A DNA stretch of 64,000 nucleotides from a candidate division TM6 bacterium GW2011_GWE2_36_25 (GTDB lineage Bacteria > Babelota > Babeliae > Babelales > UBA12409): positions 156,996 through 220,995 of the forward strand of contig LBRU01000001.1 in assembly GCA_000991575.1 (NCBI GenBank). Reading direction: 5' to 3'. The notes under the pieces are model-generated. The model made no database searches. It saw only the letters and a list, made by a program, of their open reading frames with translations, and was not told where the DNA came from. Positions within the stretch are counted from its first letter, which is position 1, and each line of letters starts with the position of its first letter. The translations under genes and the position numbers were made by a program. Of this stretch, positions 32,404 through 38,763 are shown one piece after another.

Positions 32404-34347
32404 CTAAAAGGAGGCTGGGGTGAAATAGTGTTTGCTTGCAAATTTTTTTGATTTGATTGATTGGTAAGCTTCACTAATTGGAATAAATGATGCTGCTTTT
32501 AAATAAATTTTGCGTCGGTGTAAATTTTTTATTTTTGAAACTGGGGGAATTGCTGGGCCGAGGATAGTAATATTTTTATTTTTTGCGAGAAGATTAATAA
32601 TTTTTTGTGCATCTTTTTCAACAGTTGATTCGTTTTTATGAATAAGTTCGATTTCAGAAAATCTTCCGCAAGGAGGGTAAGAAAGTAACATGCGCTTGCT
32701 GATTTCGGATGCATAAAAACCAATATAATTAATTTCATTAATAAACTTGAAAATAGGATGATCAATCATTGTTTGTACCAGAACGAGACTTTCAGCGCTT
32801 TCACGGCCAGCTCGACCGGCGACTTGAATAAGCTGTTGTAAGGTGGTTTCCGCGGCATGGTAAGCGGGAAAATTGAGGTTTAAGTCTGCCCACAAAATGC
32901 CCACGAGGGTTACTTTAGGAAAATGGTAACCTTTGGTGATAGTTTGTGTGCCGACCATGATATCGATTGTACCTTTGTTAAACTGTTCAATGGTTTTGTG
33001 CCATTCTTTTTTTTTGCTTGAAGTATCAAGATCCGCGCGTGCAATATGTGCCATTGGAAAGAGTTTTTCTAAAATCGAGACCACTTGTTGAGTGCCAATT
33101 CCCTTTTTTAAGAAATTGTCTTTTTTGCATGAAGGACATTGTGTCGGGTATGGTTCTTTTTTTCCGCAATAATGGCAGTGAAGTTCATTATCATTATGCA
33201 ATGTTAAACTCACTGAGCAATGATGACAGATGGGGGTGTAAGAGCAGTTTTTGCATTGAATAAAAAAACAGACGCCGCGTCTATTGAGAAAGATAATCGT
33301 TTGCTCTTTTTTTTCTAAGCGTTGTCTGATGGCTTGTTCGAGTTCTTTGCTAATCCAAAAATTTTTTCTTTGATGTTTTTTTTCAGTGAGATTGATAATT
33401 TTGATTATGGGAAAATTGCCCGCATAACGTTTGGTAAGTTGAAAGAATTTCCACCCTTTTTTTTGGCTATTATAAAGGGATGTAGTTGATGGTGTTGCGG
33501 AGCCGAGTAAAATTGGAATTTGGTAGTGCTGTGCGCGCAAAAGAGCAGCTTCTTTCGTGTTGATTTTTGGGTGTTTCTTTTCTTGGTAACCGACTTCGTG
33601 CTCTTCATCGACAATAATGAGTCCGAGATTTCCGATAGGGAGCATGATTGGCAAATGAACGCCTATGATAACGATCGGTTTGTGTGCAAGTAATGTTTGC
33701 CATAAAAGTTCTTTTTCTTTTTTTGTATTATGTGAGTGAAAACTTAATACGGGAACCGCCAATGTGTGTTTGAAGAGATGTGCAAATTGAAGCGCTAGCG
33801 TTACTTCAGGTAATAAAACGATGCTTGTTTTATTCTTTTGATATGCTTTCAGTATTAGTTTTTTGTAAATTTCTGTTTTGCCCGATCCAGTGACGCCATG
33901 CACGAGAGTTGGCTGAAATAGTGGTTTTTCAATGTATGGGGCAAGAAATGAATAAACCTTTTCTTGTTCTTCTGTTAATACTACTTGCTGAGTTTGATTG
34001 ATTTGCTCATAGATGATTGCTTCATCTTCTTTTTCTGACGTGAGGAATTGTTGAATGCGTTGAATTAAAATATAAGACTCAATTTGTTGGTATTCTGCGA
34101 GTTTGTTAATAAATGATACATAATGTGGATCTTGGGGAAATGCATTGAGCGAATTGAGTTCTCTTATGGTGAAGGATGGTGTTTCTTGTAAGCTTTCAAA
34201 TTGATGTTCTACCAGGGCATGAACCAATTGATTACGTAATGGCACTTGGACGACTCTCCCAATCAGTTGCTCATGTTGATAGATTGATGGAACTTGATAG
34301 GTAAGTAGCTTGTTAAAGCCATTTAATAAACGAACATGTATATACAT
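32404..34347 (-). CDS. priA: Primosomal protein N' (PriA)
   Basis: HGVTGSGKTE, VLLPEV, IVDEEHE..YQE, LGSATPS, FLNRRG, four CxxC, QVAGRAGR. Start uncertain (34347/34365/34407). Confidence 0.97.
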   Translation of the reverse strand: MYIHVRLLNGFNKLLTYQVPSIYQHEQLIGRVVQVPLRNQLVHALVEHQFESLQETPSFTIRELNSLNAFPQDPHYVSFINKLAEYQQIESYILIQRIQQFLTSEKEDEAIIYEQINQTQQVVLTEEQEKVYSFLAPYIEKPLFQPTLVHGVTGSGKTEIYKKLILKAYQKNKTSIVLLPEVTLALQFAHLFKHTLAVPVLSFHSHNTKKEKELLWQTLLAHKPIVIIGVHLPIMLPIGNLGLIIVDEEHEVGYQEKKHPKINTKEAALLRAQHYQIPILLGSATPSTTSLYNSQKKGWKFFQLTKRYAGNFPIIKIINLTEKKHQRKNFWISKELEQAIRQRLEKKEQTIIFLNRRGVCFFIQCKNCSYTPICHHCSVSLTLHNDNELHCHYCGKKEPYPTQCPSCKKDNFLKKGIGTQQVVSILEKLFPMAHIARADLDTSSKKKEWHKTIEQFNKGTIDIMVGTQTITKGYHFPKVTLVGILWADLNLNFPAYHAAETTLQQLIQVAGRAGRESAESLVLVQTMIDHPIFKFINEINYIGFYASEISKRMLLSYPPCGRFSEIELIHKNESTVEKDAQKIINLLAKNKNITILGPAIPPVSKIKNLHRRKIYLKAASFIPISEAYQSIKSKKFASKHYFTPASF

Positions 34348-34400
34348 GAGGATCAGTGTACGCATTTGGTTGAAAAAATCAAAATAGGCGCCTCGGAAAA

Positions 34401-34429
34401 TTGACAACTTGAAAAATATTTATTACAGT
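34401..34429 (+). promoter_or_regulatory. sigma70-like promoter of the 34458 gene
   Basis: TTGACA-N17-TACAGT. Confidence 0.5.
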
Positions 34430-34457
34430 TAGATTGACGAAAATTTGGGGGTTTTTT

Positions 34458-35426
34458 ATGAATAAAATATCAAAAATATTGTTTTTCATTAATTTGGTTT
34501 ATTGTTTTGGTCTTTTTGCGATTCCTGAAAAGATAATTAATTGTGATATTGGACAAAAAGAAGCGGTTCCTGAGCGATGGCAGTTGGCTTGTACTGCAAT
34601 GTCTGTTGCTGCGGCTGCATATTTATTTCACGAACCATTAGGCCAGATAGAGTCTCAAGATCTTTTTTCAATTATTTGGTTAGGGGGAAATTTTTATGAT
34701 GCATTTAATTCACCTGAAAAGGAATTGGCTGCAGATCCACACTTATTTGAATCGTTTAATCGTTATTTAAATGTTATTGAACAATCTGATTATCAAATAA
34801 TCGGCGAGGAATTGGGTGTTGGTGACTCGATATCTTTTTTTGGTGTTAATGCACAAGATAAAGATGAGTTAGATCGGATATGTTGTCGCTTGATTCAAGA
34901 TGGTAAGCCTACTCATAAAATGGGTGGATTATTGACCGGGCAGCTTATTGAGCATTTATTTAATAGCCACCGCGAGTTAAAATGTCCTATTGCTGTTGTT
35001 TTTACGCTCGATACTGCTTATTCATATGCAATTATAGTTCAAAACGACCACTTTTTGTTTTTTGATTCACATCATAAAACCGGAGACCATACTGGTTCTA
35101 GACTTCTTATTTTTAATACGGTAGAAGAGATGAATGACTTTCTTCTTGTGGAGTTACCGCACGTTCCTTTTAGCGGTTCTTTTATTATTCCGCGAAGTTC
35201 ATTTATAAAAAGATCGGTTATTTCTACGGAAGTGGAAAAAGCTTACGAGGATGCTTTGATGCGACTTGGTGATGATGGTTTTTCGTTTATTTCTGAAGAG
35301 GAGAAAAAAGAACAAATAAAAGCATTGCAGAAGCTTGCTGAAGAAGAAGCGTGTAAAAAGAGAAAAGAGCAGGAGGAGCTCGACGCAGAGACGGCTTGTT
35401 TAGTGCAGGAGACTGAAGATAGGTAA
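34458..35426 (+). CDS. Secreted herpes-tegument-like (VTD/C76-type) cysteine protease, putative deubiquitinase, with C-terminal MIU-like motif
   Basis: Signal peptide; GQ-x11-C (QLACTAMSVA), L..I...G..Y helix, VVFT..AYSYAII....FLFFDSH; acidic tail with ELDAETACLVQETE. Confidence 0.7.
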   Translation: MNKISKILFFINLVYCFGLFAIPEKIINCDIGQKEAVPERWQLACTAMSVAAAAYLFHEPLGQIESQDLFSIIWLGGNFYDAFNSPEKELAADPHLFESFNRYLNVIEQSDYQIIGEELGVGDSISFFGVNAQDKDELDRICCRLIQDGKPTHKMGGLLTGQLIEHLFNSHRELKCPIAVVFTLDTAYSYAIIVQNDHFLFFDSHHKTGDHTGSRLLIFNTVEEMNDFLLVELPHVPFSGSFIIPRSSFIKRSVISTEVEKAYEDALMRLGDDGFSFISEEEKKEQIKALQKLAEEEACKKRKEQEELDAETACLVQETEDR

Positions 35427-35671: not shown

Positions 35672-36640
35672 ATGAAGAAATATTTTTTAAGTTTAATATT
35701 TTTGTCGAGTGTTGGTAGTTTATGTGCTATGGGGCGAGATGTTCGTTTAACGCCTGCGGGTCAGTATGAATATTTTCGAGTAATTCCATCATTAATTGAA
35801 GGTCAAAACTTTGACGAGGCGCGTGAACGCATTAATTTTCTCAGAACAGCGTCAAGAAGTTTTGTTTCAACTGATCAGCTTGATTTGATTGAGGCACAAT
35901 TAGAGACGGCTATTCGTGACAAAGAAGATATGCGAGCATATGAACGTGAGCAGGCGCGGTTATTGCAAGACTATAATACAGTAGAGCAGGATATGTATCA
36001 CTATCGTGATCGTCATGATATTGATTCTGAGCGCAGTTCTTTAATGGGTTTATGGGAAATTGCTCAGAATATTGATAGAGAACCCTTGTCATTGCCAGCG
36101 CACATGGTACGACTTTTCCAGATTGAAAGCTGTTCATTAGCATCATCTAAAAAAGATGATCGTTTAATGATTGATTTGATTACTTATTTTGAACGAACTC
36201 ACGATAAAGTTGCACATGATGCATTTGAATTAATGTATTATGGGGACGCATCCGGTCGTTGTGTATCTCCTTTTCAACGATTGCATGGTGAGGCAAAGCG
36301 TCTTTATGATAGTGATTTAGTGCGCGCAACACAATTGCTTGAATTTCTCATGTTAGTGGGCGATGAATCGTTACGTAATCGCGCAACTATCTTTCTTGCA
36401 ACGGGGGAAGATCCAGAAGGGGTGGCTGAAGAAGAACATATTGTTGATTTGCCAATGCGGCATGTTTTAGATTGGCCTGTTGCTGAACGTGTGGCTGAGT
36501 ACTTAAGTCAGGCCGGGGAGACTATTGATGAAGCATTTCAATTGGCTGAACTTAATCAGGACAGAGAAGCTGTTGCTCAACTAGCGCAGATAGTTACTGA
36601 TGAAGCATTAGCCAGATCACTTGCAAGAGACTTTAACTAA
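35672..36640 (+). CDS. Secreted helical hypothetical protein with C-terminal MIU/UIM-like motif
   Basis: GGAGG RBS; signal MKKYFLSLIFLSSVGSLCA-MG; ends TDEALARSLARDFN. Confidence 0.75.
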   Translation: MKKYFLSLIFLSSVGSLCAMGRDVRLTPAGQYEYFRVIPSLIEGQNFDEARERINFLRTASRSFVSTDQLDLIEAQLETAIRDKEDMRAYEREQARLLQDYNTVEQDMYHYRDRHDIDSERSSLMGLWEIAQNIDREPLSLPAHMVRLFQIESCSLASSKKDDRLMIDLITYFERTHDKVAHDAFELMYYGDASGRCVSPFQRLHGEAKRLYDSDLVRATQLLEFLMLVGDESLRNRATIFLATGEDPEGVAEEEHIVDLPMRHVLDWPVAERVAEYLSQAGETIDEAFQLAELNQDREAVAQLAQIVTDEALARSLARDFN

Positions 36641-36792: not shown

Positions 36793-38763
36793 ATGAAAAA
36801 GAATCTTTTAATAATAACGCTATTGTTTTTTGCACAAATATTTGCACAAGAAGCTAATTGGAAGCGCATTCCCGGAAGTCCAGAAAAATTGTGGAATGAG
36901 CGTGGTAGGTCCGCGGAAGCTTCATTGGCTGCAGTTAATTTAGATGAGGATGACATTTTCTCCGCCGATTCTTTTATGAATTTGATTGAAGAGGATCGTC
37001 AAGAAGGGCGGCTTTTCGGAATTATGCAAGTTGTTTATATTTTGCCTTCCGGTGAGGCTGCATCGTATTATGCTGCAGTTAGATGGCAAGATTTTGTTAA
37101 ATCTCTTGAGGCACCGATGGTACGTGGTTATGGGTTAGCTGCTAATCCTGATCTGCTTGAGGAATTGGGTAGACAGCATCATTGGAGTCCTGAATTTATT
37201 GAAGAATTATCACAAGCAGATCCTGAGGAACAAATTGATATGTTAGTTGAAAAAAGAGTTCCTGCTGCAACGGTTGATATTTTACGTAATGCATTTTTAA
37301 AAGAGTACAAACTTCCTTTAGTAGATGCAGCAACTAAGCAGAATATCATTGCTCAACATGAATTTTTTATCTCTAGGCCTGACGGTCACTTATGGCCGAC
37401 ACAAGAACTTGCCCGGTTAGAAAATATTTTTTTAACACATGTGGATACAAGGAATTTTGTAGGTGCGCGTCTCATATTAGACCAAATGGCTGGATTGGGA
37501 GAGCAACGCATAATTGGTGATTTTATTGAAGATTTATGGATGACGCTTCCTGATGCGGTTCGTCAGCGTCATGAAAAAGAAGAAGTGAAAACGGAAGAAA
37601 TTTCATCTTTGAAGCGCATTCCTGGCTCTTCTGATGAAGACTGGAAAAGAGGTGCTCGAATAGCGCTCTTTGATTTGCGTGATAATGATGGAGTAGCGAA
37701 TGCCCCTTTCTTGGAGTTGATGGATGATTATAATCGAAGAAAAAGTGTTTCTCAGTTAAAAAAAGGTGAAGAGCTCGTTAATGGTCCATTTTGTATTGTT
37801 CAAGTTCGACCTGAAGGAGCGGGGGCTCAATATTATAGTTGTGAGTCATGGGATGGATTTGTGGCGCATGCGTCAGGAAGAGGTCTACTGTATGATCCGA
37901 CAACGAGGGGTTATGTTTCTCCGTGGAGAGATGTGAGTAAATTTTATATTGGTGATCCAAGAGGACATTTATGGGATTCGCCAGTATCGGCTGATCAGGA
38001 AGAATCAATCTTAAAATTATTAGATCAAAGTAATAATGCAGCTGCTCAAAAAATGTTAGCTGGCTTTGATAGTATTGTTGAACATCCACGTTATGATGCA
38101 CACATGAGAGAATTAAGCGAGATGGTACGGCGAAAATTTGAAGCTGTCCCTAAAAAACGAGAAGTCGTTCTGTCGCCTGAAGTTGGCCCTGAAGAGCCCC
38201 TCGAAGAAATTGGCCCTGAAGATCGGATTATGAATTTAATAACAGAGGGTAATTTGGATGTTGCAAAAGAAATGATTGCTCGTTTGCCTGATGAGGAAAA
38301 ACAATTTGAATTAATGTTAGAACTGAGCGCTCAGGAAGAACGTTTTCGACATCAAGGAGAAGAAGTCTTAAGGATTCAACGAGAAGGAGAGATGCCTGAA
38401 GGAGAAGAAGCTCGTCGTAGAGAGGAAGCTGTGCTTTTGGAAAGAGAAAGTCAAGCAAGGGCGGCCGCGGAAGTACGAGCGAGAGAAGAAGCGTTGAGGA
38501 TTCAGCGCGAAAGAGAGATGCGTGAAGCAGAGGAAGCTCGACATAGAGAGCAGATTGTTCGCCTTGAAAATGAGATTAGGGTGCTTGAAAATCAAGTAGC
38601 ACCTTACCTGCGTGTTATAAAAGAACATGAAGGTAGATATTCTCAAGGTGCTCTTGCCAGATACTCTGCAACAACGCCGTATAAGAGGGCAAAGGCGTCC
38701 TATGCACCAATTGAAGGAAAAATAGCAGCCTTGAGAAGGGAGCTAGAGGTTTTGCGACGATAA
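36793..38763 (+). CDS. Secreted hypothetical protein with duplicated N-terminal domain and C-terminal coiled coil
   Basis: Signal peptide MKKNLLIITLLFFAQIFA; two KRIPGS...W...F.I.QV...YY...W..FV...GHLW blocks; Glu/Arg-rich tail. Confidence 0.8.
   Translation: MKKNLLIITLLFFAQIFAQEANWKRIPGSPEKLWNERGRSAEASLAAVNLDEDDIFSADSFMNLIEEDRQEGRLFGIMQVVYILPSGEAASYYAAVRWQDFVKSLEAPMVRGYGLAANPDLLEELGRQHHWSPEFIEELSQADPEEQIDMLVEKRVPAATVDILRNAFLKEYKLPLVDAATKQNIIAQHEFFISRPDGHLWPTQELARLENIFLTHVDTRNFVGARLILDQMAGLGEQRIIGDFIEDLWMTLPDAVRQRHEKEEVKTEEISSLKRIPGSSDEDWKRGARIALFDLRDNDGVANAPFLELMDDYNRRKSVSQLKKGEELVNGPFCIVQVRPEGAGAQYYSCESWDGFVAHASGRGLLYDPTTRGYVSPWRDVSKFYIGDPRGHLWDSPVSADQEESILKLLDQSNNAAAQKMLAGFDSIVEHPRYDAHMRELSEMVRRKFEAVPKKREVVLSPEVGPEEPLEEIGPEDRIMNLITEGNLDVAKEMIARLPDEEKQFELMLELSAQEERFRHQGEEVLRIQREGEMPEGEEARRREEAVLLERESQARAAAEVRAREEALRIQREREMREAEEARHREQIVRLENEIRVLENQVAPYLRVIKEHEGRYSQGALARYSATTPYKRAKASYAPIEGKIAALRRELEVLRR

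Follow-up and report, generated by a model that had tools for sequence, protein, structure and literature searches.

VTDs, the viral tegument-like deubiquitinases (MEROPS C76-like), were recognised as the eighth class of deubiquitinases in 2022, and the known bacterial VTDs are K6- or K63-specific. Among bacteria they were reported from only two Chlamydiales and one myxobacterium (PMC9741609), and a 2026 review names only SnVTD, WcVTD1 and WcVTD2. The closest described system is Wc-VTD1 of Waddlia chondrophila, with which SnVTD of Simkania negevensis is grouped (8ADB/8ADC, Erven et al. 2022, PMC9741609). Both crystal structures, 8ADB and 8ADC, are of Wc-VTD1, in a construct comprising residues 279-494, and the mutants C313A, D440A and H442A are inactive (PMC9741609). 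The body text of that paper says Cys319; the figure legend (C313A) and the PDB chain numbering show that the residue is Cys313. No paper linking the phylum Dependentiae with tegument-like enzymes was found in the literature searched. Here a gene from this phylum is described that lies at 34458-35426 (+) in a stretch of 64,000 nucleotides, termed the window, of candidate division TM6 bacterium GW2011_GWE2_36_25 (contig LBRU01000001.1, positions 156,996 to 220,995). It translates to 322 amino acids without internal stops, and both sequence and structural model support a VTD / peptidase C76-like cysteine protease behind an export leader. The favoured reading, to which a probability of roughly 0.7 is given, is that this exported protease removes ubiquitin from host conjugates.

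The assignment to the VTDs is made because three independent lines agree, namely Pfam, a family profile matched to Wc-VTD1 and a structural model compared by Foldseek. PF04843 (Herpes_teg_N) was the only Pfam family matched by the window protein (E 0.005, 16.9 bits). The same family matches 7 of the 10 family members in the same region, at profile positions ~110-183, which hold the D-x-H motif, and P0005 alone in the family passes the gathering score (26.2 bits). A hidden Markov model (HMM) of the family alignment A1 (10 rows, 26% mean identity) identified 8adb/8adc among all PDB sequences with an E-value of 2.1e-6 over ~180 residues, and no other PDB protein gave a significant match. In the register of this alignment, counted along its printed form with Wc-VTD1 chain residue 1 as 279, Gln33 corresponds to Gln300, Cys45 to Cys313 and Asp203/His205 to Asp440/His442. 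Searches with the single window protein returned no NCBIfam match, and its phmmer matches in the PDB were uninformative, La protein and uL10 having been hit through the charged tail.

The third line is structural. An AlphaFold 2 (AF2) model computed with a multiple sequence alignment reached a pLDDT of 84.2 and a pTM of 0.74, superseding a single-sequence AlphaFold model that was uninformative (pLDDT 49). In this model Cys45 opens the helix 45-56 and the D-x-H motif lies on the strand 198-208. The six best Foldseek matches in the PDB, which come from 8ADD (a helitron VTD), 8ADC and 8ADB (Wc-VTD1) and 2J7Q (M48 of murine cytomegalovirus, MCMV), are all VTDs, with E-values of 1e-6 to 2e-5, a probability of 1.00 and target-normalised TM scores of 0.50-0.69. 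The seventh match has an E-value of 2e-2, so that only VTD structures are significant, in line with a papain-like fold of VTD topology. NlpC/P60-type and other papain-like envelope hydrolases were considered and ruled out, as no structural match to them appeared in Foldseek. Against BFVD, 26 herpesvirus large tegument proteins were matched at probability 1.00. The preliminary description of this gene, made from the sequence alone, had read it as a C76/VTD-type protease and proposed a fold comparison with M48 and Wc-VTD1; that assignment is supported by all three lines, and the fold comparison came out in its favour. The model also matches proteins of giant viruses in BFVD, uncharacterised ones from Indivirus, Catovirus and Tupanvirus (target-normalised TM 0.44-0.50, probability 0.99-1.00), which hints at VTD-like enzymes in giant viruses.

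The predicted catalytic domain spans residues ~25-245 (34530-35192, +), as delimited by the model (pLDDT mostly 75-97), Foldseek and the profile against 8ADB. Translation confirmed the reading frame and every motif string that had been quoted for it. The string DIGQ (Gln33)-x11-C (Cys45) is present within WQLACTAMSVAAAAYL, the helix string LFSIIWLGGNFY is present as well, and AVVFT..AYSYAII..DHFLFFDSH closes in FFDSH with Asp203-Ser204-His205. The candidate oxyanion-hole residue Gln33 (34554-34556, +) is near-invariant and aligns with the glutamine of 'ITQY' in Wc-VTD1, chain residue 22 or Gln300. The candidate nucleophile Cys45 (34590-34592, +), at the N-terminus of its helix, aligns with chain residue 35, Cys313. 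The residues 203-205 (35064-35072, +) form the D-x-H that defines the VTDs and lie inside the part matched by PF04843. The oxyanion role of this glutamine is established for M48. In the window protein it sits 12 residues ahead of the cysteine and in Wc-VTD1 13 residues ahead, so that the earlier remark on a glutamine about 12-13 residues before the cysteine, together with an FDSH motif, was borne out by alignment with the catalytic residues of Wc-VTD1.

A catalytic set of Gln, Cys and Asp-x-His predicts the pattern of conservation that is seen in the family alignment. Near-invariant among the ten rows are G32, Q33, T46, S204 and H205. Cys45 is kept in eight of the nine rows that cover the position, P0007 having a glycine there, and Asp203 in seven of nine, the remaining two carrying an asparagine (N-x-H). 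The motifs thus exceed what chance would give. Conservation also extends to a G-x-x-x-S-x-x-x-x-G-x-N loop (G120 to N131; 34821-34850, +), which aligns with the Pro383/Phe384 loop of Wc-VTD1. It reads GDSISFFGVN in the window protein, DDSPYHEGIN and DGSPFYHGEN in homologues and DNPFSAEGN in Wc-VTD1.

The comparison with described enzymes places the window protein nearest to Wc-VTD1. No PDB protein other than this was recovered with the family profile (E 2e-6), and it gives the best superposition (TM 0.69, rmsd 3.9 A); the Gln, Cys and Asp-x-His residues are in register, a Pro/Phe-type loop precedes G-x-N in both, and both proteins come from bacteria living inside protists. However, the two share only ~14-15% identity, the source belongs to the phylum Dependentiae and not to the Chlamydiota, and in Wc-VTD1 the domain is one part (279-494) of a larger protein, while the window protein has it immediately behind a Sec-type leader. 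The K6 specificity of Wc-VTD1 is not transferable. MCMV M48 (2J7Q, C76, PF04843) shares the fold (probability 1.00), the D-x-H order and the glutamine ~12-13 residues before the cysteine, and the herpesvirus large tegument model PF04843 detects the C-terminal third. In contrast to the window protein, to which M48-type enzymes are 11-12% identical, the viral C76 domain forms the N-terminus of a capsid-bound protein of >2000 amino acids, has a ubiquitin-binding beta-hairpin and lacks a leader. Enzymes of the Wc-VTD1 type have a loop in place of this hairpin. The helitron enzyme DrT1-VTD2 (8ADD) ranked first by Foldseek E-value (1e-6) and shares the triad architecture, but it is a K48-selective protein of a eukaryotic transposon without HMM-detectable sequence similarity. 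ChlaDub1/SseL (CE clan), LotA (OTU) and the Josephin 'clippases' share the presumed role of removing host ubiquitin in intracellular bacteria, but differ in their unrelated or distant folds, their conventional triad order and their type III/IV delivery, the markers of which were not found here. PaJOS was a non-significant Foldseek match (E 2e-2).

By homology to relatives that have been mutated and crystallised, Cys45 would act as the nucleophile, His205 as the general base with Asp203 two residues before it (the 'flipped' or 'mirror image' D-x-H typical of VTDs), and Gln33 would contribute the oxyanion hole. Relatives of the source bacterium live within protist cells. The leader would take the protease across the inner membrane, and a secretin-dependent, type II-like route or outer-membrane vesicles would release it from the bacterium. 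In the host, its target would be the isopeptide bond that follows the C-terminal Gly-Gly of ubiquitin, in chains or in conjugates of host proteins. Such cleavage could weaken defences that depend on ubiquitin, xenophagy for example, or modulate the action of the RING ligases that the parasite itself encodes.

Ubiquitin is the substrate we infer, since all VTDs assayed in PMC9741609 reacted with the ubiquitin probe Ub-PA and the ubiquitin-contacting loop is conserved in the family. The assayed enzymes are from Waddlia, fungi and Naegleria, and it is the Pro383-Phe384 loop of Wc-VTD1 that contacts the Ile44 patch of ubiquitin (PMC9741609). A protease of VTD fold might instead be directed at a ubiquitin-like protein (NEDD8, Atg8/LC3, UFM1 or a protist-specific one) or clip host proteins in the manner of YopT/AvrPphB. 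VTDs are structurally related to YopT/HopN proteases, UFSP2 and ATG4 likewise use a D-x-H triad and herpesviral BPLF1 doubles as a deneddylase (PMC9741609); moreover, identity to any assayed VTD is just 11-15%. Such a substrate is nevertheless unlikely. No YopT/AvrPphB, ATG4 or UFSP structure occurs among the 50 best Foldseek matches in the PDB, the tested bacterial VTDs were labelled by Ub-PA alone and not by SUMO1, SUMO3, NEDD8 or ISG15 probes (PMC9741609), and both the Pro-Phe-type loop and UIM-like (ubiquitin-interacting motif) segments in family members point to ubiquitin.

The family is small and unevenly distributed. A phmmer search of 1.8 billion representative proteins gave eight matches, all with E < 1e-10; apart from the protein itself these comprise seven relatives, of which two are fragments. 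In six-frame searches, the remaining two species of the genus yielded homologues of 31-33% identity, and three further genera of the family yielded weaker ones. A profile search of the 261 species genomes of the phylum in the collection recovered the protease family in seven, six of the same GTDB family and one, with a fragment, in another. A word-index search with the single protein returned only the protein itself, and with alignment A1 two fragments were added; among 152 pattern matches in a pattern search of genome contigs with the protein, none was confirmed. The closest orthologue is 55-61% identical to the window protease, compared with 85% for PriA and 74% for the neighbouring protein N1 between the window and L092, a Logan contig of SRR22388267. 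The protease family thus evolves fast, diverging more quickly than its neighbours, and has been lost at times, which is the usual behaviour of genes for host interaction.

Signs of decay in some relatives bear on whether the gene could be a decaying or catalytically dead remnant, a pseudo-enzyme serving at most as a binding protein. Besides the Cys-to-Gly replacement in P0007, the orthologue on L092 (3582-4495) is broken into open reading frames (ORFs) of 129 and 164 amino acids by a one-base frame change at a poly-T tract, which corresponds to a T7 homopolymer inside the window gene (34835-34841, +). Genuine pseudogenisation, slippage or a fault of the assembly could each account for this split. 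The second protease copy of G002 carries four stops, and G006 holds fragments. In the window, however, the frame is intact, all four catalytic positions are present and the model is confident over the catalytic core. The identical protein is encoded on 17 public contigs, including GCA_000991385.1, GCA_003511635.1 and one JGI metagenome, and the gene is unchanged in several independent groundwater and soil metagenome runs, whose reads show no variants, indels or joints. A dead remnant is therefore highly improbable at this locus.

Export is predicted from a Sec-type leader, MNKISKILFFINLVYCFGLFA, at residues 1-21 (34458-34520, +), with the basic residues K3 and K6, a 15-residue hydrophobic core and a modelled helix at 2-18. 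The residues LFA at 19-21 precede the first strand of the domain, and cleavage after LFA21 is possible; the leader may be either a cleaved signal or a signal anchor. An equivalent leader is present in all eight homologues that have an N-terminus. A lipoprotein leader was ruled out, as L-V-Y-C has a tyrosine at -1 and is unfit for a lipobox. Three secretin (PF00263) genes are found in the genome, outside the window (contig C1, 86088-86603, 117987-118439 and 122510-122989), two of them 4 kb apart, while the markers FHIPEP (type III) and VirB4 (type IV) were not found there. In the cultured Dependentiae member Chromulinavorax destructans, whose cells lie in the host cytoplasm, signal peptides are present on 44% of the coding sequences, proteases and ankyrin proteins that are secreted are counted among the effectors, and the cells release vesicles (PMC6561590). 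Judged from this relative, a Sec leader on a host-directed enzyme is the rule in Dependentiae and no oddity.

The same observations allow for a periplasmic or envelope protease acting on the bacterium's own proteins or cell wall, that is, a housekeeping enzyme and not an effector. The Sec-type leader is the sole targeting signal recognised, no dedicated effector injection system was found in the genome, and a C-terminal hydrophobic segment in two homologues could anchor in the bacterial membrane. This role is quite improbable, as the fold matches only ubiquitin-directed enzymes and bacteria are without ubiquitin. A patchy occurrence in 7 of 261 genomes and a divergence well above that of PriA are also unexpected for housekeeping. 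In addition, the protease gene stands among leader-bearing orphans, and the same genome encodes leader-bearing RING proteins.

Several points weigh against a host-directed deubiquitinase and lower its probability. The Sec leader alone would bring the protein to the periplasm, and its transfer to the host is assumed. The PF04843 match of the window protein lies under the 25-bit gathering score, though bacterial VTDs are far more divergent and Wc-VTD2 was likewise missed in a first search (Erven et al., PMC9741609). A residue that matters for the activity of Wc-VTD1, Glu363, falls on a column that is not conserved in the family. Even in the crystals of M48 and Wc-VTD1 the histidine equivalent to His205 is distant from the cysteine, in a non-productive pose. 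No RNA run with the protease gene was found, all public runs that hold it being DNA metagenomes. Finally, the family is dispensable or decaying in some lineages, as follows from the glycine in P0007, the apparently frameshifted closest orthologue and the pseudogenised copy in G002.

The C-terminal region of the deubiquitinase candidate was analyzed for a potential to bind ubiquitin. Residues 280-321 (35295-35420, +) are modelled as a long charged helix (pLDDT ~71-88), which belongs to the variable tail of the family and is unalignable among homologues. The acidic tail ends ELDAETACLVQETEDR, and the preliminary description had proposed that it forms a built-in ubiquitin-binding motif of the MIU type. 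The segment concerned, DAETACLVQETE (residues 309-320; 35382-35417, +), matches this motif in part only: it reads D309-A-E-T-A313-C-L-V-Q317-E-T-E320, with the Asp, Ala, Gln and Glu in MIU register. It resembles the MIUs of Rabex-5, RNF168 and ZUFSP in being a single long helix in acidic surroundings with D309, A313, Q317 and E320 in place. It differs from them in that a threonine replaces the leucine before the key alanine and Val-Gln replaces Leu-Gln, in its lack of conservation and in its position 2 residues from the C-terminus. The leucine replaced by valine belongs to a Leu-Gln pair that is highly conserved in MIUs (L240/Q241 in ZUFSP), and the key role of the central alanine is known from RNF168, in which A179G/A450G abolish binding.

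The patterns LA..LQ and D..LA..LQ.EE gave zero matches in the protein. A relaxed pattern occurs in no other of the ~1,000 ORFs in the genome and seldom in tail shuffles, but having been fitted after the fact it does not amount to a test. P0002, the closest orthologue, lacks the segment, since it ends ...EKACLEKEQE ahead of it, and no alignable counterpart occurs in any other homologue. The built-in MIU is thus not supported, since the consensus D-x-x-L-A-x-x-L-Q-x-E-E is unmet and the segment is missing in all homologues; a tail acting as an MIU is possible but doubtful. The C-termini of the family are diverse. The homologues of G001 (L003 1489-2394) and G007 (L008 823-1713, -) close with a hydrophobic stretch that resembles a tail anchor and is followed by basic residues, in G005 (L004 1-2283, -) a frame of 1552 aa with a Pro/Ala-rich linker begins with the VTD domain, and P0005 and P0007 have no C-terminal extension. 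Exchangeable tails on an unchanging catalytic core would suit a role of the tail in targeting, and the C-terminal helix is the variable and probably the targeting part of the family. This exchange suggests a modular C-terminal addressing of a common deubiquitinase core to different host sites.

The gene downstream of the protease (35672-36640, +) encodes N1, a leader-bearing protein of 322 amino acids that is probably linked to it functionally. The adjacency of the two genes is kept in the window, in G002 (in reverse order) and in L092. In P0004 of G002 (L002 1366-2703) a module of ~80 residues between the VTD domain and UIM-like motifs shares 41% identity with residues 17-95 of N1 (E 3e-18), so that P0004 appears as a Rosetta-stone fusion of the VTD domain and the N1 module in a sister species. 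Together with the conserved adjacency, this fusion suggests that N1 and the protease work together. P0004 further contains, at residues 356-388, a consensus UIM core LDQAIALSFQVD, L-D-Q-A-I-A-L-S-F-Q-V-D, followed 22 residues past it by D-E-L-L-A-L-S-L-D-I-D; the pattern of this core occurs twice in the 319,000 residues of the window's genome. The two motifs look like a tandem ubiquitin-interacting pair on a bacterial deubiquitinase. No Pfam UIM or other family was matched on the tails of the window protein and P0004, a search in which short models are filtered out and which is uninformative on this point.

N1 itself ends in DEALARSLARDF (D-E-A-L-A-R-S-L-A-R-D-F), which is kept as DKALAVSLDENF (D-K-A-L-A-V-S-L-D-E-N-F) in L092, and no more than two ORFs in the genome contain the pattern D..LA..L..[DE]. 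The D-x-A-L-A-x-S-L end of N1, the fusion in P0004 and the exchange of tails in the family are the basis for a more far-reaching but tentative idea. In this, the two genes would form an 'eraser plus reader' unit delivered by Sec and a secretin and not by injection, in which the VTD domain cuts ubiquitin chains and UIM/MIU-like helices on the protease tail or on N1 recognise the chains or the targets; at present such a unit is possible at best, with the odds clearly against it.

The surroundings of the protease gene consist of housekeeping genes and leader-bearing orphans. On one side it is flanked by priA on the minus strand (32404-34407), and on the other N1 is followed by a second leader-bearing orphan (36793-38763, +; 656 aa as called, no Pfam family) and then by polA, thyX, secF and rho, the two orphans lying within a priA-polA block. 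The second orphan has two '...P.GHLW...' segments and a long Glu/Arg-rich C-terminal coiled coil, for which alone a paralogue exists in the genome (on C2, with 42% identity over 165 aa). On L092 a gene with weak IBR-domain matches lies downstream of the block. No paralogues of the protease or of N1 were found in their own genome, and the base composition of the protease gene is ordinary. The frame is listed as one long frame from 34434 to 35426 (+), within which the ATG at 34458 is the likely start. It is preceded 6 nt upstream by a Shine-Dalgarno-like GGGGG (34447-34451, +), and at 34401-34429 (+) by a sigma-70-like promoter, TTGACA-17-TACAGT, which matches the consensus at 10 of 12 positions, such sites being no commoner in the region than in shuffles. 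An alternative TTG start at 34434 was discarded because it coincides with the transcript start predicted from this promoter-like site.

The source is a groundwater member of the Dependentiae (Babeliales) with a genome of 1.07 Mb in 17 contigs (94.6% complete); the genomes listed for the phylum are small, 0.5-1.9 Mb. Rho of the window is most similar to Rho of a 'Candidatus Babeliales bacterium' metagenome-assembled genome, and the two are sisters with 99% SH-like support in a tree that covers 81 Rho sequences of many different phyla. The lineage is thus Dependentiae (TM6) and not Chlamydia-like, as the comparison with Waddlia might suggest. The 'vacuole' and the 'deneddylase' activity that had been named earlier for the enzyme were therefore guesses.

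Taken together, a divergent, leader-bearing VTD subfamily in a new bacterial phylum is well supported by sequence comparison and modelling, and no new mechanism is implied. The finding is of use to specialists in ubiquitin and effectors but no great surprise, as VTDs were already known in other amoeba-associated bacteria, and the pairing of a deubiquitinase with a reader and modular tails is only suggested. The domain of ~220 amino acids may be a candidate enzyme for linkage-specific ubiquitin tools. The Dependentiae VTDs would add a second phylum of protist parasites to the range of the family, which fits the idea that VTDs circulate in a protist-associated gene pool, as do the fold matches in giant viruses. 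For the organism, the protease would place an 'eraser' beside the RING ligases in the candidate ubiquitin toolkit of an uncultured lineage without injection systems.

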